Positions 331-24,086 of a stretch of 24,704 nt of DNA are shown here, one piece after another. Both the position numbers and the translations under genes were made by a program. Under the pieces are notes generated by a model. The model saw only the letters and a program-made list of their open reading frames with translations, ran no database searches and had not been told where the DNA came from. Source of the stretch: a virus (taxonomy: Duplodnaviria > Caudoviricetes); IMG/VR virus record IMGVR_UViG_3300036546_000362, positions 1-24,704 of that record; one strand, given 5' to 3'. Numbering within the stretch: the first letter of the stretch is position 1; each line of letters begins with the position of its first letter.

Positions 331-1992
331 ATGGGTAGTGACTCACTTAGCGTGAATGTCGGTACGATAGGTAAAGCGGATGATGGCACCACGCCAGTGT
401 CAAAGGCGGTTAGGCCTGCTGTACCTACTTTTAATGCCGAATATGAGGCGTACCACTTAAGTCTGTTTGATCCCAAAGAGGTATTGTTGGGTTATCAAAA
501 GCGTTGGTTGGCCGATAAATCACAGCTGAAAATCGCCGAAAAGTCACGCCGTACTGGCTTAACCTGGGCCGAAGCTGCAGATGCTTCGTTAACTGCTAGT
601 ACCGCCCGTGGTCAGGGAGGTACCAACCACTTCTATGTGGGCAGCAACAAGGAGATGGCACGCGAGTTTATCGACGCCGCAGCCATGTGGGCGAAGGTCT
701 TCGACAAGGCTGCAGGTGATATCCAGGAAGAGGTGTTTATCGATGATGGCCAAGACGGCAAAGAGATCCTCACCTTCGCCATTTACTTTGCTTCTGGCTT
801 TAAGATCCAGGCGCTGTCATCAAACCCATCCAACCTGCGTGGTATGCAGGGTAATGTGACCATTGATGAAGCGGCGTTCCATGACCGCTTAGCCGAAGTA
901 CTTAAGGCGGCATTGGCACTGACAATGTGGGGCGCAAAGGTGCGCCTCATCTCCACCCATAACGGCATCGACAACCTATTCAACGAGCTGATTAATGATT
1001 CCCGAGCGGGCAAAAAGGACTACTCGATCCATCGCATCACCTTAGATGATGCCTGTGCCGAGGGTTTATATCAGCGTATCTGCCAGGTGCGCGGCATAGA
1101 GTGGAGCCAGCAAGCAGAGGATGAGTGGAAGGCTGGCCTACTCAAAGGCACAGCAACCGAAGAGGATGCCCTGGAAGAATATGGCTGCGTGCCTAAGCAA
1201 GGTGGTGGAACCTACATTAAACGGGTATTGATCGAAGAGGCCATGGTGAAAGATGGCTCAATCCCTATCCTGCGCTTCACCGCACCGAAAGATTTTGAGA
1301 CCTGGTCTGATGCCCACAGACATATTCAGGTCCAAGAGTGGTGCGAGCAACTTACCTCCCATATAGACAAACTCAATCCATTATGGAATCACGCCTTTGG
1401 CGAAGACTTTGCACGCCGTGGTGACTTATCCGTATTTGTACCGCTGGAGATAAAGCCTGACTTAAGTAAGCGCACTCCATTTGTGATGGAGCTGGCCAAA
1501 CTGCCCTATGACACTCAGAAGCAACTGCTGTTCTATCTTTGCGATCGCCTACCACGTCTGCAGGGGTTGGCGTTTGACGCTACCGGCAACGGCGGCTATT
1601 TGGCCGAGGCGGCCATGTTTCGCTATGGCACAGATATGGTTGACCAAGTGATGTTGTCGGAAGCCTGGTATCGAGAGTGGATGCCCAAGCTCAAAGCAGA
1701 GTTTGAAGATCTCAATCTGACTATCCCGCGCCATCAGGATGTGCTCGACGATATGGGCAAAATCAAGGTGGTGAATGGTACCCCAAAAATTGATAAAGGC
1801 TCAGATAAAAGCGCGGTAACAGGTCAGCAGCGCCACGGAGACTTTGCCGTAGGCTTGGCCATGGCCATCAGGGCCAGTTGGATGGAGGGAAGCGTGATCG
1901 AATACACTCCGTTGCCCAGTAGGGCCAGCCGTGAAGATGACGAATTCGACGATGACCTCTATGCAGGCAGTTATGAACAAGGAGCCTGGTAA
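331..1992 (+). CDS. terL: Terminase large subunit (Mu gp28-like)
   Basis: Motifs LLGYQKRW, EKSRRTGLTW (Walker A), LRGMQGNVTIDEAAFH (Walker B), LISTHNG, GEDFARRGD, DATGNG and RHGD. Start placed at ATG 331 after SD AGGAG (318-322) rather than at 205. Confidence 0.95.
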   Translation: MGSDSLSVNVGTIGKADDGTTPVSKAVRPAVPTFNAEYEAYHLSLFDPKEVLLGYQKRWLADKSQLKIAEKSRRTGLTWAEAADASLTASTARGQGGTNHFYVGSNKEMAREFIDAAAMWAKVFDKAAGDIQEEVFIDDGQDGKEILTFAIYFASGFKIQALSSNPSNLRGMQGNVTIDEAAFHDRLAEVLKAALALTMWGAKVRLISTHNGIDNLFNELINDSRAGKKDYSIHRITLDDACAEGLYQRICQVRGIEWSQQAEDEWKAGLLKGTATEEDALEEYGCVPKQGGGTYIKRVLIEEAMVKDGSIPILRFTAPKDFETWSDAHRHIQVQEWCEQLTSHIDKLNPLWNHAFGEDFARRGDLSVFVPLEIKPDLSKRTPFVMELAKLPYDTQKQLLFYLCDRLPRLQGLAFDATGNGGYLAEAAMFRYGTDMVDQVMLSEAWYREWMPKLKAEFEDLNLTIPRHQDVLDDMGKIKVVNGTPKIDKGSDKSAVTGQQRHGDFAVGLAMAIRASWMEGSVIEYTPLPSRASREDDEFDDDLYAGSYEQGAW

Positions 1993-3620
1993 TGGCAGAT
2001 ACAACGCATACTGACACTCATATTGATAAGAATGGAACTCGTTACAAAGTGAGCGACAAGCAGCTGTCACAGACCCAGACCGACACGGCCAGACTGGCGC
2101 ACCTGCAATCTCACTACGCCAGCCATCCAAGCCGAGGGCTAACCCCTGCCAAATTGGCGGGCGTGCTGCTGCGTGCGGAGCAGGGAGATTTAATTGCTCA
2201 GTGTGAACTGGCCGAAGATATGGAAGAAAAGGATGGCCATATTTTCTCCGAGCTGCAAAAACGCCGCCGGGCGCTACTTGGGGTAGATTGGCAAATCGTA
2301 CCTCCCCGTAACGCTACGGCCGCCGAACAGGCCGACTGTGAGTTACTGCATGAACTGCTCGATGACCTGTCGACTTTAGAGGATCTCATCTTCGATATGT
2401 CAGACGCCATCTTAAAAGGATTTTCAAACAGTGAAATCGTTTGGCAGCGTCAGGGGGCATTATGGTTGCCAGAGGCGTTTCATTTTAAAGATCCAAGCTG
2501 GTTTATGCTGCCTGGTCACGAGAGCGGCCTGAGCCGAAATGAGCTGCGGCTGAGGGATAACAGTTTGCACGGCGAGGCATTGCAGCCCTTTGGTTGGGTG
2601 AGTCATATCCATAAAACCAAGTCAGGGTATTTGAGCCGTAATGGATTGGCCAGAGTGCTGGCCTGGCCGTTTCTGTTTAAAAACTACAGCGTGAGGGATC
2701 TGGCTGAGTTTTTGGAAATTTACGGCTTGCCGCTGCGCTTGGGTAAATATCCTTCGGGCGCCGGTAAAAGTGAAAAGGCGACTTTGCTGCAGGCGGTAAT
2801 GAGCATTGGCCATAATGCGGGCGGCATCATTCCCAAAGGAATGGAGATCGACTTTACCGAGGCAGCAAAGGGCGGCAAAGATCCCTTTGAGTACATGGTA
2901 TCGTTAATGGAGAAAACCATCTCCAAGACTATTTTGGGTGGGACGCTCACCAGCCAGGCTGATGGCAAAAGTTCAACCAACGCTCTGGGCAATGTACATA
3001 ACGAGGTACGCCAAGAGCTGCGCGACTCAGATCTCAAACAAATCGCCAATACGCTTACCCGTGATTTGGTACTGCCTCTCTACATGCTCAACTGTAAGAG
3101 TTACCGTCATAGCAGTCGGGCTCCAAGGCTTGAGTTTAACCTGGTGGAAGCAGAAGATCTTAAAGTCTATGCCGATGCACTGCCTAAGCTGGTAGGAATA
3201 GGCTTTGCCATTCCGCAATCCTGGGCACAGGACAAACTGCAGATCCCCATTGCGAAAAAGGATGAGCCTATGTTGTCGATAGGCAAAGTGTCAGTGGAAG
3301 AGAACGGCCAGGCAAAACTCAAACAGCAGACCATTAAACGTATTGTGGCGCTGAAACAACAAGCAGAACGACCAAATATCGTCAATGACGACCAGCAACT
3401 GGACGAGATGATTGCTCAGTTGGGGGATGAGATGATCCCGGCGTTACAGGGCTTTAGCAATGAAGTGCAAGGGCTGGTCAATAACGCGCAATCTTTGGAG
3501 GAACTACAGGCCAAGCTGGCAGCGCTTGACCTGAATATTGATGAAGCCACTGAGGTGCTGCAGCTGGCGATGGTCTCTGCGGAATTGGCCGGTCGCTATG
3601 ATGTCAGCGGAGGCCGCTAG
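1992..3620 (+). CDS. Portal protein (Mu gp29 / DUF935 family)
   Basis: Motifs DMEEKDGHIFSELQKRR, FLEIYGLPLRLGKY, SKTILGGTLTSQ and LGNVHNEVR; TAATG coupling to terL. Confidence 0.93.
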   Translation: MADTTHTDTHIDKNGTRYKVSDKQLSQTQTDTARLAHLQSHYASHPSRGLTPAKLAGVLLRAEQGDLIAQCELAEDMEEKDGHIFSELQKRRRALLGVDWQIVPPRNATAAEQADCELLHELLDDLSTLEDLIFDMSDAILKGFSNSEIVWQRQGALWLPEAFHFKDPSWFMLPGHESGLSRNELRLRDNSLHGEALQPFGWVSHIHKTKSGYLSRNGLARVLAWPFLFKNYSVRDLAEFLEIYGLPLRLGKYPSGAGKSEKATLLQAVMSIGHNAGGIIPKGMEIDFTEAAKGGKDPFEYMVSLMEKTISKTILGGTLTSQADGKSSTNALGNVHNEVRQELRDSDLKQIANTLTRDLVLPLYMLNCKSYRHSSRAPRLEFNLVEAEDLKVYADALPKLVGIGFAIPQSWAQDKLQIPIAKKDEPMLSIGKVSVEENGQAKLKQQTIKRIVALKQQAERPNIVNDDQQLDEMIAQLGDEMIPALQGFSNEVQGLVNNAQSLEELQAKLAALDLNIDEATEVLQLAMVSAELAGRYDVSGGR

Positions 3621-3622
3621 CC

Positions 3623-4861
3623 ATGCCAGTAACCGCCCTGTCTGCTGTAAATTACGGCGCATTACCCTTTAAAGAACAGATTGCCTTTTTCAAAGGCAAG
3701 CTAAACCTGCCTACAGAGCGCTGGAACGATATCTGGCAGGGAAGCCATGCCAAGGCGTTTGTGGTGGCCGGGGCAATGAAACATGATCTGCTGGTCGATT
3801 TGCGCAGTGCGGTCGATGCTGCTATTTCTGATGGTAAATCACTCACCTGGTTTCAGTCTGAGTTTAAAAAGATAGTGGCGAAACATGGCTGGGCGCATAC
3901 AGGCAGCAGTAGCTGGCGGGCGAAGGTGATATTCGATACCAACATGCGCCAAAGCTACAATGCGGGTCGCTACGAGCAGTTGCAACAGTATGCTTATTGG
4001 CGCTATGCGCACGGCGACAGCCGTTACCCGCGAGAGCTGCATCTTAAATGGCACGACACTATTTTGCCGAAAGATCATCCCTGGTGGTCGACTCATTTCC
4101 CTCAAAACGGCTGGGGGTGCAAGTGCCGGGTTTATGGTGTCAGTCAATATGAGTTAGAGCGGCGTGGTCTGACGGTGACCACTGCACCAGAGGATGGCAT
4201 TAGAGAGTGGCTCGACAAAACCACAGGTGAAGTGCACCAGGTGCCTAAAGGAATTGACCCGGGGTTTGATTACAACGTTGGTGAGGCCAGCCTGGGCAAA
4301 CGTTTAACCACCCAGCAGATGCAGGCATGGCAGGCACAAAAAGGCGATGCTTGGCAAAGTCTAACATCTGACACCTGGCAATCGTTTAACTTGCCCCAGT
4401 TGCTTCCTGTTATTGACACTAATGTGGCCTTGGCACCGAGTGCGCAAACGATTGAGCAGCTCAGTGATACTGTGAATAAAGCTTTTGGCAAAGAAAAAAT
4501 TGTCCCAGGGCCAACAGACAACCTGTCGGTTTATATCAATAGTGCAGCCTTGGTTGAACACCTGAGTAAGGATCTGCATCGCTCACGCTTTATACCACTG
4601 CTTGCTGATGTGATCGCCGCGCCGCAGGAGGTGTGGGCCGCATTTGAAAAACACCTGGGCACAGGTAAAGTGGCACTGCGCCTGAGATATATCAAGGTCG
4701 TCAACGTTGGCAAGAATAAGAGCCTGTTGTTGGTGGCGCAGGTGGTTAAAGGGCGTATAGAAGCGTGGACATTCATCCCGCTGACACCTGGTGGTTATCT
4801 CAATAAACAGCGACGCGGACGATTGTTGTATTCGGCAGATATAACTGGGAAGGATGAATAA
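3623..4861 (+). CDS. Head morphogenesis protein MuF (gp30) with C-terminal PBECR2-like nuclease domain
   Basis: N-terminal MuF motifs (AFVVAGA, IFDTNMRQSYNAGRY, HPWWSTHFPQNGWGCKCRV, GIDPGFDYNVG). The ~170-aa C-terminal extension (HL..DLHRSRFIPLLADVIAAPQEVW...RYIK...WTFIP...YLNKQRRGRLLY) matches my recollection of the PBECR2 family. Confidence 0.85.
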   Translation: MPVTALSAVNYGALPFKEQIAFFKGKLNLPTERWNDIWQGSHAKAFVVAGAMKHDLLVDLRSAVDAAISDGKSLTWFQSEFKKIVAKHGWAHTGSSSWRAKVIFDTNMRQSYNAGRYEQLQQYAYWRYAHGDSRYPRELHLKWHDTILPKDHPWWSTHFPQNGWGCKCRVYGVSQYELERRGLTVTTAPEDGIREWLDKTTGEVHQVPKGIDPGFDYNVGEASLGKRLTTQQMQAWQAQKGDAWQSLTSDTWQSFNLPQLLPVIDTNVALAPSAQTIEQLSDTVNKAFGKEKIVPGPTDNLSVYINSAALVEHLSKDLHRSRFIPLLADVIAAPQEVWAAFEKHLGTGKVALRLRYIKVVNVGKNKSLLLVAQVVKGRIEAWTFIPLTPGGYLNKQRRGRLLYSADITGKDE

Positions 4862-4862
4862 C

Positions 4863-4946
4863 TTGCTGGAGTGCCTGCTATACGTGTGGTTATAGCTACA
4901 CTGGCAATTAATTCTCACGCCACACCGCAACCGAATTAATCCACCT
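4863..4946 (-). ncRNA. Candidate structured small RNA convergent with the muF 3' end (two hairpins with complementary loops)
   Basis: Downstream of a minus-strand promoter. Stems ATTAATTC/GAATTAAT and GCTATA/TATAGC; loops carry complementary GTGTGG/CCACAC. The 3' end is undefined. Confidence 0.45.
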
Positions 4947-4952
4947 GTATTC

Positions 4953-4981
4953 AGTATATGGTTAACCCCAGGCTTATTCAA
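4953..4981 (-). promoter_or_regulatory. sigma70-type promoter pointing back into muF
   Basis: Minus strand TTGAAT (4981-4976), 17-bp spacer, TATACT (4958-4953); predicted +1 near 4946. Confidence 0.65.
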
Positions 4982-5022
4982 TTAAGTCACCTTCAACTCA
5001 GATAAGCAGTAAGCGAGGCAAG

Positions 5023-5502
5023 ATGGCAGGCAGTTACATTAAAGTTGAATATCGCGGAGAGAAGAGCCTCACCAATGCGCTTAACAGCCTGCTGAAGCAA
5101 GGTTCCAACCTGGCCCCCGTGCTGGGGGATATTGGTGAGTACCTGCTGCCCAGTACTCAGCAACGTTTTGTGGAGATGCAAGCGCCGGATGGCTCCCCCT
5201 GGGCAGAACTCAGCAGCACCACCTTGGAGCTGAAAGCTGCTAAAGGGGCGCGGTTAGATCGTATTTTGACGGAGTCCGGCACGCTGGCAGATACCCTGCA
5301 CTATCAAATCAGCGCAGATACGCTCAGCCTTGGCACTAACGAGGAGTATGCTGCCATGCACCAGTTTGGCGGTATCACCAGCCCCAGCAGTATGATCCCC
5401 AGTGTTGAAATCCCCGCCCGTGAGTTTTTGGGCATGGCACCATTTGAAAAGAATGAGGTAGAAGCTATTGTGATTAATTATCTGGCCAAGGGGCTACCTT
5501 AA
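5023..5502 (+). CDS. Virion morphogenesis protein (Mu gpG/gp31 family)
   Basis: Motifs IGEYLLPSTQQRF..QAPDGSPW, ILTESGTL, GTNEEYAAMHQFGG and IPAREFLG; SD GAGG; position after muF. Confidence 0.9.
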   Translation: MAGSYIKVEYRGEKSLTNALNSLLKQGSNLAPVLGDIGEYLLPSTQQRFVEMQAPDGSPWAELSSTTLELKAAKGARLDRILTESGTLADTLHYQISADTLSLGTNEEYAAMHQFGGITSPSSMIPSVEIPAREFLGMAPFEKNEVEAIVINYLAKGLP

Positions 5503-5630
5503 CCGCAGCAGAGAATGGCGAGCTCTCAAACGCGATTTAAGCGCCTTAAGCCGTCGGGCCGTCTCGTTGTGTAGTGCGGTTTGTGTTAAACGCGCTAAGA
5601 GGCATTTAAACGGCTTTTAAACTGGGTTAT
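5503..5630. other. Candidate strong gyrase site (Mu SGS-like)
   Basis: Non-coding stretch just after gene G, the interval where Mu carries its SGS. Phased TTAA/TAAA tracts alternate with CGCG/GCGC at about 10-11 bp on either side of a central core. Confidence 0.55.
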
Positions 5631-5680
5631 GCTCGGTGCCAAGTGGTTTGATTGTTAATAAGGCGACAAAATTGAGTGAT

Positions 5681-6790
5681 ATGACAAAAAAAGCTCCAAT
5701 TAATAATTTGGGGATGTATTCACCAAATTATTTGAAGGAGCAACTAACTGCCACTCGACAGATTCGTGAACTGATATCACCGAAGTATATTGAAGATCAA
5801 CTTGTTGCCATTAGGCAGATACGTGAACTTATGTCACCAACGTATATGGAGGAGCAACTAACTGCCATTCGACAGATTCGTGAACTGATGTCACCGAAGT
5901 ATATTGAAGATCAGTTTGTTGCCATTAAGCAGATACGTGAACTTATGTCGCCAGCGTATATGGATGAGCAACTAGCTTACTCTAGGAATATGTATGCGCA
6001 AATGCCGCCAACGTTTGTTGACCAACAGTTAGCTGCCACGAGAAAGATACATGATCTGATGTCGTCGACATTTGTCGAGGAGCAACTGGCCGCCACTAAG
6101 AAATTGCGCACACTATTCTCGTCTAAGTTTATGGAGGAACAACTTTCTGCCCGAAAGGTGATCCTAGAGTTCAGCAATCCCGCTAACTTGCAGAACTTCT
6201 TCGAACATCTGACAACAGATAATTTTTCTCAATTAATGAGACAAGCTCAAACAGTCGATTTAAGTGTATTGGAAGACGTTGATGAGTCTGATGTTGAAGA
6301 ATTTAAAGTTTACTCGCGCAGTGGATTAAGTCAGGATCCTGAGCAGTTTATTGCTGCAGAAACAGCCAAACAGTCAAAACAATGGCAGTGGTTTGTCTGT
6401 CTTTTTGTAAAAATAGTCGAATGGATTTTTGCAGCCTACGTTGGTCTGCTGATGCAAACCTATCAAGCGCAATTGAACTTGCCGCTGTTGGCAAACGATA
6501 GTGCAAGTACACCCAAGCAAGTTATCACAGCAGCTAAAAAAGATGTTTGTGAAGAGTTGCTATCTGTCTGCCGTTTCGTTAAAGCGACTGAATTGAATGT
6601 CCGAACTGGGGCTGGTAAAAAGTATCCAGTAGTAGACACATTACCCTTCGGTCAAGGTGTTATCATTGATGCTTTCGAAGTCAATGAGAAAGATCGAGAT
6701 TGGGTGTTTATCAATTACTATGATAAACAAAGTGAAAGCTACCAACGTGGCTGGGTATATCGCCGTTATCTAAAAAGATACGTTAACTAA
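5681..6790 (+). CDS. Moron: membrane protein with N-terminal 19-aa tandem repeats, one TM helix and C-terminal SH3b-like domain
   Basis: AT-richer gene inserted between G and I. Repeats SPxYxEEQLxAxRQIRELM; hydrophobic WQWFVCLFVKIVEWIFAAYVGLLM; SH3b pattern LNVRTGAG..YPVV..L...DWVFI...GWVYRRYL. Start placed at ATG 5681. Confidence 0.8.
   Translation: MTKKAPINNLGMYSPNYLKEQLTATRQIRELISPKYIEDQLVAIRQIRELMSPTYMEEQLTAIRQIRELMSPKYIEDQFVAIKQIRELMSPAYMDEQLAYSRNMYAQMPPTFVDQQLAATRKIHDLMSSTFVEEQLAATKKLRTLFSSKFMEEQLSARKVILEFSNPANLQNFFEHLTTDNFSQLMRQAQTVDLSVLEDVDESDVEEFKVYSRSGLSQDPEQFIAAETAKQSKQWQWFVCLFVKIVEWIFAAYVGLLMQTYQAQLNLPLLANDSASTPKQVITAAKKDVCEELLSVCRFVKATELNVRTGAGKKYPVVDTLPFGQGVIIDAFEVNEKDRDWVFINYYDKQSESYQRGWVYRRYLKRYVN
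5720..6175 (+). repeat. Coding tandem repeat, 57-bp unit, about 8 copies; first four alternate A-B-A-B (114-bp higher-order unit)
   Basis: Units SPNYLKEQLTATRQIRELI / SPKYIEDQLVAIRQIRELM / SPTYMEEQLTAIRQIRELM / SPKYIEDQFVAIKQIRELM / SPAYMDEQLAYSRNMYAQM / PPTFVDQQLAATRKIHDLM / SSTFVEEQLAATKKLRTLF / SSKFMEEQLSARKVILEFS. Confidence 0.9.
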
Positions 6791-15404: not shown

Positions 15405-15495
15405 TTGACTCTGGAGGGATTTGGAAAGATACCAATTGTAATCAAAGGCAGACAGGGATATCTTGCCTTATCTCTTACTTTACAAAGGATGTGAG

Positions 15496-15999
15496 ATGGC
15501 GTCTGAATGGACAACTCCCGAAATGATCATTGCAATGTCCTCTGTTGTCATTGCGCTGTGTGCTTTGGGCACTTCTTTCTGGCAGGGCTATACAACAAGG
15601 CAGCATAACAAGCTTTCAGTCAAGCCAAGCTTGAACTTGGGATATAGTTTGTCTAAGCACTCAAGCTTTATTGGAATTGAAATAAAAAATACTGGGATAG
15701 GCCCTTTAATTATTAAAAACGCCACAATTTCAAAGGGTGGAAAATCTTTCAAAATTTCTGATGGGAATTTTAAGGAACTATTCCCAGCATTATGTAATGA
15801 AGATTTTCATTTTAATTTATTAAGCCAAAACTATTGGCTGTTACCTGGTCAGGGGGTTTGGGTGGTCAGTACCGCTGGACACCAGCATAACCCAGAGTTA
15901 ATGCACCGAATGGACTATGAACTACAAGGAGTATTGATTGAGGTTGACTTTGAGTGCATCTATCAAAATAAGTACTCTGGAAGAATGCATATAAGTTAG
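15496..15999 (+). CDS. Moron: AT-rich protein with N-terminal transmembrane anchor, unknown function
   Basis: AT-rich insertion between TMP and tail-tip genes; MIIAMSSVVIALCALGTSFWQG hydrophobic segment, then a beta-rich domain (IEIKNTGIGP); ATG 15496 after AAGGA. Confidence 0.75.
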   Translation: MASEWTTPEMIIAMSSVVIALCALGTSFWQGYTTRQHNKLSVKPSLNLGYSLSKHSSFIGIEIKNTGIGPLIIKNATISKGGKSFKISDGNFKELFPALCNEDFHFNLLSQNYWLLPGQGVWVVSTAGHQHNPELMHRMDYELQGVLIEVDFECIYQNKYSGRMHIS

Positions 16000-17319: not shown

Positions 17320-17703
17320 ATGACATTAGCTGAGTTTGTTTCGCAGCACAGAGCTACCCCCTTTTTATGGGGAAAACATGACTGCTGCTTGCTGGCAGCG
17401 AATTGGCTTAAGGCAAATGGCCGTGGCGATCTGGCCGCTAGCTTTAGAGGTACTTACAGCTCTGAGCTGGGGGCAATGCGTGCTATTCGACGTGCGGGGT
17501 TTGATTCTCTCTCGGAGTTACTTATTTCATTGCTTGGCCAGCCGACACCACCACTATCGTTAACACGCGGTGCAGTGGTGCTGCTCGATACACCAATGGG
17601 TGACGTGGTGGGCATTTATCAGGGGAGCGATTGCTTTGCCTTGGCCACTGAGGGGCTGGTGTCTTATCCGAAAGTTAACATCACGATGGGGTGGAATGTT
17701 TAA
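17320..17703 (+). CDS. NlpC/P60-like tail assembly protein (lambda gpK-like, DUF6950-type)
   Basis: PF.WG.HDCC.LAA motif and FRGTYSS..GA; located immediately before the tip protein gene. Confidence 0.72.
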   Translation: MTLAEFVSQHRATPFLWGKHDCCLLAANWLKANGRGDLAASFRGTYSSELGAMRAIRRAGFDSLSELLISLLGQPTPPLSLTRGAVVLLDTPMGDVVGIYQGSDCFALATEGLVSYPKVNITMGWNV

Positions 17704-20700
17704 TGGGCAAGGTTGTCGATGCGCTGATAGATGGTACTCCCCTCGGTAAGCTTGTTTGGGATGCCATTGGTGTTGATGCATGGTGGGAAATCGGTGTGGG
17801 GAAATATGTGCGTGAGGCGCTTATCCCTATTCCTGATGATGACTTTGGTAACGAGGCTATGTCGCAGCAGCAGATGCTGCGCTCTCCCACCGAGGCGCGC
17901 CGCTCCATTTACGGTAAGGCAATGGTTTCAGGCCCAATTGTGTTTGCTGCAGAAACCGGCACGGATAACGAATATCTGCACCTGGTGATACCTCTGGCCG
18001 CACATCAATGTGCGGATGTGCTTGAAATCTATTTCGACGATGAAGTGGTGTACCAAAACGGCAGCTTAGATACCGCCTATAGTAAGCATGCTCGAATTAA
18101 TATCCATCTCGGTACGCAAACCGCTGCGGATAGTGATTTGCTGGCCGAGTGCGAACACTGGACGGCAAGCCATATAGGGTTGGGCATTACTTACTTATAT
18201 GTGCGCCTTAAACATGATCCCGAGTTTTATGCCAATGGCCTGCCGAACATTAAAGCCCTGGTGCAGGGTAAGCCACTTTATGATCCTCGCAAAGACTCAA
18301 CCGTGGGTGGCAGTGGGAGCCACCGCTGGGATGATGAGTCTAGTTGGGAGTGGAGTGATAACTGGGCCTTATGTGTATTGGATTACACCCGCTTTGAATC
18401 CGGTGTGGGTGCATTGGTTAACGAAATCGATCTGCCATCTTATGCCTTGGCTGCCAATGACAGTGATCAGTTGGTTGAGTATGACGATGAGGGAAATACC
18501 GAGAAGCGTTATACCTGTAATGGCACCTTTACCCAGTCGATGACCCCCGCCTCAGTACTCGACAAGCTGCTCACCGCTGGGGCTGGAATGCAGACCTATT
18601 CATCAGGTAAGTATCAGCTATTCTCGGGCGTGTATCAGGGGCCGCATCTACTAACCATCGGCGAGGCCGATTTAGCCGGTGAAGTGGAAGTGAGGCCGTT
18701 TAATGCCAGGGCACAGCTGTGTAATGCCGTGCGCGGAACCTTTGTTGATCCCGACAACTTCTATCAGCCCACCGACTTTGCGCCTTATGAGTCAGATTAT
18801 TATCGTGCCCAGGATAATTGCGAGTATATCGATCATGATATCGATTTGCCGTTTACCCAGTCGGCCTATACAGCACAGCGTCTAGCCAAGCTGCACTTAG
18901 AGCTTAATCGTGCCGGGCAGCAGATAGTCGCTCCGCTGAATATGATTGGTCTCAGTGTCTCTGTCGGCCAAGTCGTTGAACTCGATTTACCACGCTTAGG
19001 CATAAAAGCCGAATATCAGGTAATGGATTGGCAATTCGATTTTGGTCAGCCCATAAAAGTGACACTGCGTGAGACTGGGCCAGCACTGTTCGACTACGAC
19101 AAGGGCAGCTATACAGATAGAAAGCTGACACCAGTATTGAACCTGCCATCATCCAAGCGAGTGCCAACCGTGACGGGCGTGCTGTGGACGCCCATGGGCG
19201 ATGATGCCAACTGGCAGGGCTTATTAGCATGGAATGCACCAGGTGGTAACAGCGCCTATCGCTATCGCTTAGAGGTGAGCAATGGACTCAATGTGGTGGT
19301 GTATCAAGCCACTATTGATGGCACCAGGCACCATATTCCCAAGTTGGATGCGGGCAACTACACCATTACCCTGTGGGCCGTAAATCTGTTTGCCAATCGC
19401 TCCAATGTACCAGCGACCATCGCTATCGGTGCCGATGCACCGCCAGCCGTGACTGGGATCTTGGTGGATACCGGAGCCCTTGAATTAACTCTGAGGCCAC
19501 AAACAGCAGCGATCACCGCCACAACTACCGAGTTTGAAGTAAAAGGTGGTCTAAGTAGCGATATTTCCAATGCGCAATTCATCGGCCAAGGCAAGGAAGT
19601 GATTTGGCCAGGACGGCATGCCAATACCCAGTATTTTGTCTGGGCACGCGCGACGAATAACTTCGGTACCAGTGCCTGGTTTGGCCCGATTATCGCGCAC
19701 ACGACTAGCGATAAATCTGCCATAGTCGATCTGCTGGGAAACACCTTTGACAAGTATACCTGGTTCGCTTGGGCCGACGATAAACAAGGCACAGGCTTTA
19801 CTACCGATGAGGCTATTGGGGATGGCAAGGCATATTTAGGCCAGGCTATTAACAAGGATACCGCTACCCCGAGCGGTAACTGGCAGGATTACACCTGGTC
19901 GAAAATTCAGACAGATATCCCAGAGCTGTTTACTCCGGCAGAAGAGGCCGCGCTTGATAACCTGATGGCTGGCAAATTGCCTACAGGTGATAAAGATATG
20001 CTGGCGCTGCAGGATGCGCTGAATGACCCCAGTTTGAGTAACAACCTGCTGACCGCCCAGCAGCTGCTGAACCAGGGCATTAACGCGGCAGGCCTTGGCG
20101 GCGAAACCCCGACCGGGGCACAGAGTAAGGCTGATGCGGCCCGCGATGAAGCCATTTTGAAGGCCAGAAACAACCTGCTGGATTTGTCAGGCTGGGTATT
20201 GGGTGCCGCTGATAACTTTGGCAGTTTCAGCCGTTACTACGGCGAATCATCTTCTATCAATCAGGTGAAGTATTTGCCCGGCCCCTTTGGCGCTCAGGTA
20301 CCGGTTTGGGAATTTGAAACCACGGTTAACCAGTCGCCGTCAGGTTCTTGGGGTGGGGGTTTTAGGGCTTACCTCAGTGGTGCCAATTATAACCCGAAAA
20401 AGGCTTACCGTTTTTGCTGCTGGATAAAGCGCAGTTCGTTAAGTGGTTACACTTACATGGGCTATGACTCAGTTTGGAATTTGGGCAGTACCACGTTAAA
20501 CGCCAATCCATATGCTATTAACAGCAACAATCCCCCGGCCGCTGATACCTGGTATTTGCTGGTTGCGGTGATCCACGGCAGTGATTATGCCGGAACCGAT
20601 AACAGTGGTTTAACCGGTTATTGGGATCCTAACACCGGCAAGCGGGTGTTTGTTGGTAATGAGTATCGCACGATTGCCGATGATAACTCGCTGTGGTTCA

Positions 20701-23700
20701 GGATGGCCCAGTATCGCACTGATTCAGGTACCAAGACGCAATATTATGCGCCTCTGTTACAGGCGCTTGACGGTACCGAAACCCCGATATCTGCCATTTT
20801 GCTTGATCCTGCTATTTCTGAGGCCAGAGCCATTGCAGCTGCTGCAGCTGATGCGACCAGTAAGGCTGACAGCGCCCAAAGTGCCGCCGAGGCTTACGCG
20901 CTGGCCAAGGCCAATCTGGCTGAAACCCAGGCCAAGGCCTATGCCGATGGTGTGGTAGACGCCGAAGAAGCCCGCGCCATTGCTGACGCCCAGGCCAAGG
21001 CAGATGCCGCGAAGGCTGCCGCTATTGCCGCCGCTGCAACCGATGCCACCACCAAGGCCAATAATGCCAAAGCCCAGGCTGAGGCCAATGCCGCCCTGGA
21101 TGCACAAAACAAAGCAACGGCCGCCCGCTCGGGTGCTGTTGCTGATGCCAAAGCAGATCCAGAGCTTGCCAATAACACCACCGCTAACGGGGTGACCAAT
21201 ATTCCAGCCCCGCTTGGCGGCAGCATAAGTTATAACAGCAACCCGATTATAGGGGCGATAAAGATTGCCCTGCCGCAATCATATACATCGACCATGCTGC
21301 GCTTTACCGTTGACGTATTCACTTACGAGGGTGATAAGAGTTTCTCTGTACAGTTTGCTGGATACAACTACCAAAGCGGCAGCTATTGGGCCAACTGCAC
21401 CGCTAAAATAATCGGAGATAGTGCCAGCAACCATCAGGTCCGTTTCGGGAATGAAAATGGTAAATGTTGTGTTTGGATAGGCAACACCGGAGATAGATGG
21501 GTTTATCCAAAAGTGTTGGTGCGTGATGTCTTTGCCAGCTACAACGCCTATGACCTTGGGCGCTGGGCCAGCGGATGGCTGATAAGCATTGAAAGCGCGT
21601 TTGGCACAGTAGACGTTGTGCTGTCAGATAACTTGGTAGGATCGCAGTATGCAAAAACGCAGGCCGAAAACGCCCAAAGCGCCGCCGAGGCTTACGCGCT
21701 GGCCAAGGCCAATCTGGCAGAGGTGCAGGCAAAGGCCTATGCCGATGGCGTGGTAGATGCTGAGGAAGCCCGCGCCATTGCTGACGCCCAGGCCAAGGCT
21801 GATGCCGCCAAGGCTGCCGCGATAGCCGCAGCAGCTGCTGATGCCACCACCAAGGCCAATTCCGCGGTTTCTTCTGCCGTGGCAACAGCAGAAGAAACCA
21901 GCGGCCGCTGGACCCGCAATTATGTGGCCAGTGCAACCCTGCACCCAGAGCTGCTTGGCCGTGATGGTGCCAGTTTACCGCAGTATTACAGTACCACTTA
22001 CGGCGCTACCACCAACACCAAGGCAGTGTATGACGTTACCATGGTAACAACTGGCACCGTCACGGTAACCAAAACCGTGGGTCAGCTGGCCTGGAATGGC
22101 GCCGCCTGGGAATGGACGCTTATCTCTGCAGTAGGCCAAGGCAGTAACCACCCCGGCATCTTGATTGAGAACGGCAAGCCGGTGGTCATTACCTGGCATG
22201 GCAATAACTACACCATTGCAGTGGCTATGTCTTGGGCCAATATCTCAACCAATATTGTTCGCGCCGGTCAGGTGATGGCTGATGCGATTACAGCCAATGA
22301 ACTTTATGCAGATACTGCGTTGATAACCAAGCTGATAGCCAATCAAGCGCTGTTCAATCAGGTTAAATCCAGACTGGGTACCTTTGGCGGCCTGACCGCT
22401 GAAACCATTGCCGCCCTGGCGATTGCCACCAACCACCTGCAGGCTGGCGCGGTGACTTCCGATAAGGTGACTGCTGACACGGCATTGATTAACAAGCTGA
22501 TCGCCAGCCAGGGCTTGTTTGATGCCCTGCAGGCGCGTTTTGGTGTGTTTGGCGGCCTGGCGGCTCAGTCGATTGCAGCCAAGGCCATCAGCACGGATAA
22601 ACTGGCCGTGACAGCCAGGAACCTGGTGAACAATGTTAGCCAAACAGGCGTTATGGATGGTTGGAACGGGTCAACGATCAGTATCGCCGATCACACTCAT
22701 AACGGAAGTCAAATTAAGGTTATAGAGTCAACAGTTGCTAACCTAAACAGCTATAACTACAGCAACTATTTTGATGTAGACAACACGAAGATTTATCAAG
22801 TAGATGTATCTATTCATAGGGTTAGTGGCGGTCTTAATGGGCACCAGTATTTTGGTCTGCTTGCTAATGGTGAGTTAGTTACCCGCTATAACGCATCTAC
22901 ACGGCAAATAATAGGTACAACAACTAATCCATACTTTTGGACGGGCGATCTGAATGATGGTGAAACCAGACAAATTCGGACATATATAGTTGGATCTGAA
23001 GTAGACAAAGATTCGATACCTGAAACTCTTAATGCCAGTGAATATTTTCAGCTGAACCCTGGCATTAAGGTTGCAGGCCTTAGAATAATGAATTACATGA
23101 GTGGCACTTCACTGACAGGCGTCACTCGCTTTTTCAACATCACGGTTACAGAACTGGGCGGCGGCCAGATATCAGCCAACCAGTTACTGGCCAATTCTGC
23201 CCTGTTCAACCAGCTTAAAGCCAAAATTGCCAGTTTTGGCGGCCTGACAGCCACCGAGATCCTGGCAGATACAGCGCTGATTAATAAGTTGGTCGGCAGC
23301 AGCGCTCTGTTTAATGAGCTGCAGGCCCGCCTGGCTGTGTTTGGCGGCCTGACGGCCAACAGCATTGCCGCCGGGGCCATCTTGGGTAATCACATCAAAG
23401 CCGGTGAGAAAATCACATCGCCCATCATTGAGGGCGGCGAGCTGCGACTGGTAGGCTCCAGCTTTATGAAAGTGAGCGCCGCCACCGCCTTTGGCCCTGA
23501 TGGCCTGATTGAGTGGTACGGGCCTAAGCTGCTTGTGGGTGGCAACCCTGACTGGGCCAACCTGAAAAAGAGCAACGCCATTACCTACCTGGCAGCCAAC
23601 GGTGATGCCTATTTTGGCGGCAGTTTGAGTGCTGGGATATTGAAAAATTCAGTCGCGACATCCGATAAAAACAAATATGAAGCCGGAACCGCTCCAGTAT

Positions 23701-24086
23701 CTCTTGGCCCGTTCTCAACCAATGGACGTACCAAGGTCGTAGTTGTCTCATTCGATATGCGAGCGTCAACTCGATATAGCAGCAACCCAGGGAGTGTCTC
23801 AGCCCCTGTTTTAAAGTGGCAATTACAGAAGCTTATTAATGGAAATTGGACATCGTTAACAAGCGGTACGTATCAAGGTACAGCATCTGTGTATTTTGAA
23901 AACGATGACCCCAGCAACACGTACTGGCAGGAATCACAGAGCTGTCAAGGATCCACAACGTATACAGACACCAGCACATCATCAGCAGACGTTACATACC
24001 GCATCCTGGTTACGTCTTACTACAGAAATGCAACAAACGGCGTAATTGAACGACAAATTCTGAGCATTATTTCAACTGAACAATAA
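17703..24086 (+). CDS. Tail tip / host specificity protein (gpJ-like), about 2127 aa, with FN3-like domains and modular C-terminal fibre
   Basis: N-terminal R..IYG.A.VSG, V.GK.LYDPR, WSDNWALC.LDY, RYTCNG, NAVRGTF.DP and LPFT.S...AQRLAK; FN3-like region ~19170-19710; repeated helical linkers downstream. Start at ATG 17703 (TAATG coupling). Confidence 0.88.
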   Translation: MGKVVDALIDGTPLGKLVWDAIGVDAWWEIGVGKYVREALIPIPDDDFGNEAMSQQQMLRSPTEARRSIYGKAMVSGPIVFAAETGTDNEYLHLVIPLAAHQCADVLEIYFDDEVVYQNGSLDTAYSKHARINIHLGTQTAADSDLLAECEHWTASHIGLGITYLYVRLKHDPEFYANGLPNIKALVQGKPLYDPRKDSTVGGSGSHRWDDESSWEWSDNWALCVLDYTRFESGVGALVNEIDLPSYALAANDSDQLVEYDDEGNTEKRYTCNGTFTQSMTPASVLDKLLTAGAGMQTYSSGKYQLFSGVYQGPHLLTIGEADLAGEVEVRPFNARAQLCNAVRGTFVDPDNFYQPTDFAPYESDYYRAQDNCEYIDHDIDLPFTQSAYTAQRLAKLHLELNRAGQQIVAPLNMIGLSVSVGQVVELDLPRLGIKAEYQVMDWQFDFGQPIKVTLRETGPALFDYDKGSYTDRKLTPVLNLPSSKRVPTVTGVLWTPMGDDANWQGLLAWNAPGGNSAYRYRLEVSNGLNVVVYQATIDGTRHHIPKLDAGNYTITLWAVNLFANRSNVPATIAIGADAPPAVTGILVDTGALELTLRPQTAAITATTTEFEVKGGLSSDISNAQFIGQGKEVIWPGRHANTQYFVWARATNNFGTSAWFGPIIAHTTSDKSAIVDLLGNTFDKYTWFAWADDKQGTGFTTDEAIGDGKAYLGQAINKDTATPSGNWQDYTWSKIQTDIPELFTPAEEAALDNLMAGKLPTGDKDMLALQDALNDPSLSNNLLTAQQLLNQGINAAGLGGETPTGAQSKADAARDEAILKARNNLLDLSGWVLGAADNFGSFSRYYGESSSINQVKYLPGPFGAQVPVWEFETTVNQSPSGSWGGGFRAYLSGANYNPKKAYRFCCWIKRSSLSGYTYMGYDSVWNLGSTTLNANPYAINSNNPPAADTWYLLVAVIHGSDYAGTDNSGLTGYWDPNTGKRVFVGNEYRTIADDNSLWFRMAQYRTDSGTKTQYYAPLLQALDGTETPISAILLDPAISEARAIAAAAADATSKADSAQSAAEAYALAKANLAETQAKAYADGVVDAEEARAIADAQAKADAAKAAAIAAAATDATTKANNAKAQAEANAALDAQNKATAARSGAVADAKADPELANNTTANGVTNIPAPLGGSISYNSNPIIGAIKIALPQSYTSTMLRFTVDVFTYEGDKSFSVQFAGYNYQSGSYWANCTAKIIGDSASNHQVRFGNENGKCCVWIGNTGDRWVYPKVLVRDVFASYNAYDLGRWASGWLISIESAFGTVDVVLSDNLVGSQYAKTQAENAQSAAEAYALAKANLAEVQAKAYADGVVDAEEARAIADAQAKADAAKAAAIAAAAADATTKANSAVSSAVATAEETSGRWTRNYVASATLHPELLGRDGASLPQYYSTTYGATTNTKAVYDVTMVTTGTVTVTKTVGQLAWNGAAWEWTLISAVGQGSNHPGILIENGKPVVITWHGNNYTIAVAMSWANISTNIVRAGQVMADAITANELYADTALITKLIANQALFNQVKSRLGTFGGLTAETIAALAIATNHLQAGAVTSDKVTADTALINKLIASQGLFDALQARFGVFGGLAAQSIAAKAISTDKLAVTARNLVNNVSQTGVMDGWNGSTISIADHTHNGSQIKVIESTVANLNSYNYSNYFDVDNTKIYQVDVSIHRVSGGLNGHQYFGLLANGELVTRYNASTRQIIGTTTNPYFWTGDLNDGETRQIRTYIVGSEVDKDSIPETLNASEYFQLNPGIKVAGLRIMNYMSGTSLTGVTRFFNITVTELGGGQISANQLLANSALFNQLKAKIASFGGLTATEILADTALINKLVGSSALFNELQARLAVFGGLTANSIAAGAILGNHIKAGEKITSPIIEGGELRLVGSSFMKVSAATAFGPDGLIEWYGPKLLVGGNPDWANLKKSNAITYLAANGDAYFGGSLSAGILKNSVATSDKNKYEAGTAPVSLGPFSTNGRTKVVVVSFDMRASTRYSSNPGSVSAPVLKWQLQKLINGNWTSLTSGTYQGTASVYFENDDPSNTYWQESQSCQGSTTYTDTSTSSADVTYRILVTSYYRNATNGVIERQILSIISTEQ
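20874..21860 (+). repeat. Two 189-bp near-identical direct repeats (20874-21062 and 21672-21860) inside the tip gene
   Basis: Both encode AQSAAEAYALAKANLAE(T/V)QAKAYADGVVDAEEARAIADAQAKADAAKAAAIAAAA(T/A)DATTKAN; offset 798 bp. Confidence 0.92.
22308..23357 (+). repeat. Four dispersed copies of an ~31-aa motif ADTALIxKLxxxxALFxxLxARxxxFGGLxA
   Basis: Copies at about 22308-22400, 22473-22565, 23176-23252 (partial) and 23265-23357, all containing TTTGGCGGCCTG. Confidence 0.85.

Follow-up and report, generated by a model that had tools for sequence, protein, structure and literature searches.

A conserved, predicted kissing-loop RNA behind muF-PBECR2 genes of Mu-like phages is a candidate immunity factor for a predicted virion-borne nuclease

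The stretch of DNA analysed here (the window; 24,704 nucleotides of IMG/VR record IMGVR_UViG_3300036546_000362) is the late region of a Mu-like phage, in which portal, muF and gp31/Neck1 genes are followed by protease, capsid and tail genes (Table 1). Among named MuF homologs, the nearest (84% and 76% identity) come from Shewanella, and a Shewanella host is therefore likely. Between gp31 and the protease gene lies a low-GC (~43%) accessory gene (5636-6790, plus strand), the 384-aa product of which has ~19-aa repeats in its N-terminal third and a bacterial SH3 domain at its C terminus. A low-GC, moron-like ORF of 178 aa (15463-15999, plus strand; family unassigned), with an N-terminal hydrophobic segment, follows the tape-measure gene, and a 2131-aa ORF (17691-24086, plus strand) closes the tail module.

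Table 1. Features of the portal-muF-gp31 segment, in window positions
Feature	Positions	Strand	Remarks
Mu-type portal gene	1992..3620	+	Indicates a Mu-like phage, with the module in its late head operon
muF minor head protein gene, 412 aa	3623..4861	+	Phage_Mu_F domain aa 60-170; C-terminal PBECR2 aa 289-403
PBECR2 predicted RNase domain	4487..4831	+	Pfam, residue conservation, predicted structure, fold neighbours
Predicted small RNA, ~80-85 nt	4862..4946	-	+1 near 4946 inferred from the -10 box
Hairpin B (3')	4870..4902	-	Lower stem, A/AG internal loop, 6-bp upper stem, loop with CCACAC 4889-4884
Hairpin A (5')	4903..4945	-	Long stem, internal loop, 3-bp inner stem, loop GUGUGG 4925-4920
Sigma70-like promoter, TTGAAT-17-TATACT	4953..4981	-	Faces muF (convergent); conserved across homologous loci
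gp31/G-like virion morphogenesis (Neck1) gene	5023..5502	+	Downstream border of the cassette

MuF of the window has the build of a MuF polymorphic toxin, with a MuF domain encoded downstream of the portal and a variable C-terminal toxin domain. A downstream immunity ORF is lacking: the 161 bp between the muF stop and gp31 hold no plus-strand ORF of at least 50 aa. An antisense ORF of 132 codons (4583-4981) is not conserved, and an antisense protein was rejected as a candidate because every antisense frame in the relatives L002, L161 and L196 has at least three stops. The original prediction that no protein immunity gene follows muF thus holds.

The C-terminal region of MuF, where a PBECR2 domain had been anticipated, does match Pfam PBECR2 (PF18810) at the residues given in Table 1, with E=3.4e-19 and 69.7 bits against a curated cut-off of 27.1. 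Active PBECR domains are described as having a His in an N-terminal helix along with a C-terminal Thr or Ser (PMC5512222). In an AlphaFold2 model of the window domain (pLDDT 88.6), His313 (4559-4561) lies in the first helix and Thr383 (4769-4771) in a late strand, the helix His and C-terminal Thr/Ser expected of PF18810; Arg320 (4580-4582) is likewise intact. Nine of the top 11 rows in a VIA fold ranking of this model were CdiA, colicin D/E5, BrnT or another toxin-antitoxin entry, a resemblance to colicin D/E5 and CDI tRNase (CdiA tip) folds that is suggestive only, with Z of 4.4-6.0 (all below 8) and r.m.s.d. of 3.2-4.4 over 71-88 residues. Foldseek returned no neighbour of the model at E<=0.001, and a PDB sequence search with the domain gave no match. 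Pfam found PBECR2 and Phage_Mu_F alone in MuF, and so no toxin of the ToxN/AbiQ/CptN/TenpN families. An AbiF-type HEPN/Abi_2 nuclease was also rejected, there being no Pfam match and the model being an alpha/beta meander, not a four-helix fold.

On its minus strand the gap carries a predicted promoter and, behind it, a predicted RNA of two hairpins. Hairpin A is formed by ATTAATTC (4907-4914) and GAATTAAT (4933-4940); hairpin B by GCTATA (4877-4882) with TATAGC (4891-4896) and by AGTG (4870-4873) with CACT (4899-4902). On this strand the loop of hairpin B would pair with that of hairpin A (plus-strand letters GTGTGG at 4884-4889 and CCACAC at 4920-4925). The promoter, hairpin and loop coordinates proposed originally all agree with the sequence. 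One detail was given up: the TTGC/GCAA pairs that would lengthen hairpin B are in competition with the base of hairpin A and have not been retained in L002.

Taken alone, the window element lies only modestly beyond chance. Its promoter and folding energy are unremarkable, the promoter being one of nine such sites in 4 kb (4.4 expected) and the minus-strand folding z-scores ranging from -1.1 to -1.4. The full architecture is rarer: 3 of 150 shuffles of the window gave a kiss of at least 6 bp, and none reached the energy of two hairpins plus kiss. Rfam gave a best E of 3.1 across window positions 4000-5600, nothing over the gap and no match in 20 homologous loci. A tRNA or tmRNA gene was rejected, as ARAGORN found none in the window and nine loci. 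Contig sets from two sequencing runs, guessed to be RNA, each include a single short piece overlapping the gap (4873-5057 and 4863-5110; depth ~3), which is the sole piece in 20 kb in X2 and is joined by two more elsewhere in X1. These pieces extend past the predicted +1 and carry no strand, and one has an uncompensated change in loop A (depth 3.5); we counted them neither way.

The wider family was collected from homologs. A full-length MuF search retrieved 2193 proteins and a PBECR2 domain profile 519 clusters at 50% identity; loci, drawn from named phages as well as viral, genome and metagenome collections, were reduced to 134 PBECR2 and 47 other MuF loci. An iterated nucleotide profile found 45 members of the element, which were aligned by MAFFT and for which RNAalifold predicted two hairpins on the minus strand. 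The loop-loop helix was added to this structure by hand before pairs were counted. In the 45-sequence alignment, compensatory changes occur at all seven loop-loop pairs, and pairing is kept in 97.4% of kiss cells; 26 of 27 pairs, kiss included, have changes on both sides, and the structure as a whole is 89.7% paired against 34-49% in slid controls. Covariance models R1 and R2, built without the pseudoknot, match 96 of the 134 PBECR2 loci in the interval from -60 to +600 nt relative to the muF stop, three further matches sitting inside read-through frames. Among these matches, complementarity of the loops also exceeds that of permuted loops, at least 6 bp being formed by 43 of 61 distinct loop pairs against 9.6 on permutation (maximum 17).

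Strand and promoter can be read from the same family. Base pairs of the G-U type outnumber A-C on the minus strand, by 73 to 35 in stems and 14 to 3 in the kiss. A scan for kissing loops succeeded in 90 of 134 loci on the minus strand and 58 on the plus strand, a group statistic only, since it also finds 6-bp matches in three of eight loci without a gap. Upstream of 66 of the 96 model matches lies a TTG...16-18...xAxxxT motif (5.5 in shuffles; none on the other strand), the -10 box of which ends a few bases from the model start. At the other end, 80 of 96 loci have their modelled 3' terminus between -10 and +11 nt relative to the muF stop; a T-tract follows it in only 33 of 96.

According to the titles of the sequence records, members occur in Pseudomonadota, Thermodesulfobacteriota, Planctomycetota and Myxococcota, and they are also found in Thermus and Meiothermus phages. 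Complementary loops were seen by eye or by scan in the distant PBECR2 phages RcapMu, RcWaterboi, EBPR siphovirus 4, RR1-B, L308, L075 and L079. A whole-genome search with R2 returned nothing in five genomes, two of which carry the element by eye, and hence gives no measure of copies in trans. A short-motif search of the supplement to PMC5546546 left the RcapMu element unmatched among its 422 putative sRNAs, which counts neither way. Loci with more distant or BECR-like MuF tips (L062, L068, L081 and L254) have similar gaps just after the muF stop, in which, by eye, an outer stem seems to enclose complementary loops; other PBECR families may have the element as well. A single small genome of ~1.5 Mb (G152) has three PBECR2 genes (L252, L257 and L258), two of them on shorter frames of 292-294 aa, with longer elements behind the two examined.

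The window RNA itself belongs to a clade of four distinct members (window, L002, L161 and L196). Here all six kiss pairs are invariant, and the covariation evidence therefore comes from the wider family. Within the clade, hairpin B shows a single compensatory change, from A-U to C-G, in both L002 and L161, and pairs poorly in L196. Relatives whose domains are 74-92% identical retain the element, and a long stretch spanning loop A is invariant. The gap is 122-125 bp in L161 and L002, as against 161 bp in the window; the -10 box is common to all three, and the extra sequence of the window (4959-5022) supplies the -35 box. Models R1 and R2 do not match the window RNA, even with filters off, nor does model R3, built from the window clade, match any family member, and scans of viral contigs with exact motifs and a clade profile found no further members of the clade. 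We regard the window RNA as a divergent variant that appears to join the family by its position, strand, size, topology and -10 box/promoter.

The element follows the PBECR2 domain. R1 found no match in the 47 MuF loci without PBECR2. A minus-strand promoter stands before gp31 in 51 of 87 PBECR2 loci, in none of 37 other MuF loci and in none of nine PBECR2 loci that lack the gap; it is therefore not a feature of gp31. Promoter conservation and covariation among homologs, which the original prediction had proposed among its checks, are both found, the latter at every kiss pair of the 45 sequences. Directly downstream of 27 of 29 long MuF genes with other tips is an ORF of 65-90 aa, and a small ORF behind a MuF toxin is reported as the usual immunity arrangement (PMC5576092). 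The element occupies the slot in which other MuF toxins have their immunity ORF, a placement that supports an immunity role. In the second common MuF tip (L004-L049, C-terminal half of long MuF), the end of the protein has an HExxH-like motif (L031, L041), with weak metallopeptidase matches for L044 and usually the 65-90 aa ORF downstream.

Domain and RNA also behave as a unit. In L221 (613-1614) two PBECR2 domains of different clades stand in tandem, each with its own RNA behind it, an arrangement that we liken to orphan toxin-immunity cassettes. Second RNA copies occur in L119 (1478-1554) and L190 (2889-2967), with different loops and a promoter-like sequence each; in L119 a long inverted repeat lies between the two copies. 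From the promoter region on, phages RcapMu and RcWaterboi are 94% alike; over domain and element they do not align. Copies displaced by 177-485 nt behind inserted ORFs (L036, L225 and L051) keep their structure.

Loss of the element goes with loss of one residue of the domain. Ten of the 134 loci were dropped (three truncated, five too distant to align at the site and two duplicates), leaving 124 core loci, in which position 320 is Arg or Lys in 117 and neither in seven. All seven of the latter abut gp31 and have no model match; a single locus among the 117 keepers (L192) abuts, abutment being assigned by hand from the table of gap lengths. Among the keepers, 93 have a model match of at least 20 bits and 20 more an element found by eye, by scan or as a weaker match; L133, L157 and L229 keep His and Arg with an ambiguous element, and L192 has none. 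His313 is kept in 116 of 116 non-abutting loci, against five of eight abutting ones. The Fisher p of 1e-10 for co-loss is inflated by relatedness and was not relied on.

A quick IQ-TREE tree of 127 rows places losses of the element at five points (L053; L250; a clade of five that adjoins L177; L192; and the distant L261), with Arg320 lost at the first three. Two of these three lineages adjoin RNA-bearing sisters (L005/L099 and L177). The co-loss amounts to only three or four independent events, read from the drawn tree, which has no bootstrap. In L192, which keeps His and Arg and has no element, Thr383 is changed to Ser and Tyr392 is missing; its close sister L188, under the same genome-bin title, carries the RNA. 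Phage JBD25 has a 1-bp gap and a PBECR2 domain that looks degenerate by eye. In phage Mu, F overlaps G without a gap, and the PBECR domain of Mu has been called inactive (PMC5512222).

On these grounds we take the element to be real: a conserved, predicted RNA without an Rfam match, coupled to a phage BECR-family domain. Its structure, promoter motif, tie to PBECR2 and co-loss with Arg320 are established at the level of sequence comparison. What it does is a further step. We think it probable, with moderate confidence, that the element behind muF is a small kissing-loop RNA that binds and inhibits the predicted PBECR2 RNase of MuF as its immunity factor. Direct inhibition is favoured because the element replaces the immunity ORF, because its own promoter opposes the late operon, because it is kept with an intact-looking nuclease and lost on degeneration, and because orphan cassettes exist. 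The original prediction had left several roles open, namely that the RNA neutralises, guides or is a substrate of the nuclease, or silences muF. Of these, co-loss with the invariant Arg favours neutralisation; guiding is unlikely, as it is the two loops that are single-stranded and variable, and these pair with each other; and antisense silencing is weakened by the displaced copies and the need for structure.

In such a scheme constitutive transcription in the prophage, off the strand opposite to the late operon, would supply the RNA before MuF is made. Acting as a tight decoy, the closed kissing fold would sit on the face of the colicin-D-like domain that binds RNA, and would protect the producing cell and lysogens, while head-packaged MuF would be delivered to a new host without the RNA. 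Nuclease and RNA would travel as one exchangeable cassette, like the toxin tip and the immunity gene of polymorphic toxins. Somewhat less firmly, we lean towards a general picture of widespread, virion-delivered polymorphic BECR-fold RNases with a kissing-loop RNA antidote, swapped and stockpiled as cassettes across Mu-like phages and several bacterial phyla.

Co-loss would be equally expected if the RNA were a cofactor and Arg320 merely bound it. The RNA could then be a required partner, either packaged and injected with MuF-PBECR2 as a ribonucleoprotein or forming an oligomer at the portal through intermolecular loop-loop pairing, like the pRNA of phi29. MuF is described as a head component tied to the portal (PMC5576092), and the complementary loops are able to pair between molecules as well as within one. 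We nevertheless consider such a partnership possible but unlikely. Phages with a short MuF, with other MuF tips or with a degenerate PBECR2 (JBD25) do without the element, so packaging does not need it. A sigma70-like promoter that opposes the late operon suggests that expression is separate from assembly, the orphan copies in L119 and L190 fit stockpiled immunity better, and the 45-member alignment reveals no variable, unpaired guide segment.

The promoter might instead drive a cis-antisense transcript into muF that lowers its mRNA, in the manner of type I systems, the hairpins serving as a stabilizing 5' leader. Read-through is plausible given how near the 3' ends lie to the muF stop and how few have a T-tract. 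We find this account doubtful, however. The displaced copies are still structured, antisense pairing requires no covarying kiss, and the RNA pairs with the start of muF no better than with other segments of coding sequence (best in 2 of 40). Moreover, loss of the element follows one residue of the nuclease, not muF itself.

We give little credence to function on the plus strand or as DNA (mRNA processing, control of translation before gp31, or a terminator), or to a small protein encoded on the minus strand. The hairpins form on the plus strand too, yet that strand scores lower in the kiss scan, and the G-U bias and the promoter are both of the minus strand; gp31 in other MuF loci does without the element. 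Minus-strand ORFs of at least 60 aa start within the element in 42 of 96 loci, 29 of them in one frame, but the antisense ORF of the window is closed in its three nearest relatives. Finally, that the window hairpins have nothing to do with the family, being fortuitous or decayed, as the missing model matches and weak z-scores might be taken to indicate, is hardly credible when position, strand, length, topology and -10 box are those of the family, the element with its invariant stretch over loop A is kept in relatives and no shuffle matches it.

The original prediction knew of no description of such a pairing of MuF-PBECR2 with an RNA. Our literature search, which took in few subscription papers, likewise found no account of an RNA beside MuF-PBECR; its scope did not extend to the gene-neighbourhood supplements and web resource of a 2026 BECR preprint (10.64898/2026.08.28.747851). 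If the RNA is indeed an immunity factor that inhibits the PBECR2 domain, it would be a third RNA-antitoxin pairing, on a BECR fold and as immunity for a virion-borne polymorphic toxin, and would widen the class; the missing immunity ORF of these MuF toxin genes would be accounted for as well. What MuF and PBECR domains do, a long-standing question, becomes directly testable, with natural active/degenerate sister pairs and the cultured phages RcapMu, RcWaterboi, RR1-B, Riverbug and MMP7 at hand. The cognate RNA should allow the PBECR2 domain to be cloned, purified and solved, and the RNA is itself a structured family without an Rfam match.

Type III antitoxin RNAs are pseudoknotted and are encoded as a repeat array upstream of the toxin, in the same operon. 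Here, by contrast, a single two-hairpin unit lies downstream, on the opposite strand and under its own predicted promoter, and the predicted BECR-fold toxin domain is fused to a virion protein and is not a ToxN. The prohead RNA of phi29 is another small phage RNA that has two complementary loops and is linked to the head, where it serves the packaging ATPase; the present element differs in following one MuF tip domain and in being absent from Mu-like phages with other tips. The MuF toxins (Jamet 2017; MuF-RelA/SpoT of SPNA45) share the MuF N terminus, the variable C-terminal toxin and the place between portal and next virion gene, whereas the immunity slot is filled here by a non-coding element with an opposing promoter, not by a co-transcribed ORF. 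For the PBECR domains of polyvalent phage proteins, mRNA or crRNA targets have been proposed, and the available part of that account names no adjacent RNA or immunity factor (Iyer 2017).

Protein-binding RNA antitoxins have been described for type III toxins and for HEPN-family AbiF. In type III systems (ToxIN, CptIN, TenpIN and AbiQ) a structured RNA binds and neutralizes a protein endonuclease (PMC12737573), and in AbiF-AbiFr and AbiF(Cd)-RCd22 a prophage RNase is neutralized, in cis and in trans, by direct binding of an adjacent ncRNA (10.1101/2025.04.15.648962; PMC12737573); AbiF has been proposed as a forerunner of Cas13. AbiF, however, is a HEPN protein and a stand-alone defence factor, whereas here a colicin-D-like domain sits on a head protein and the RNA has kissing loops. 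The RNA likely works as a type III or AbiF antitoxin does, yet belongs to neither family, with another toxin fold and another RNA shape.
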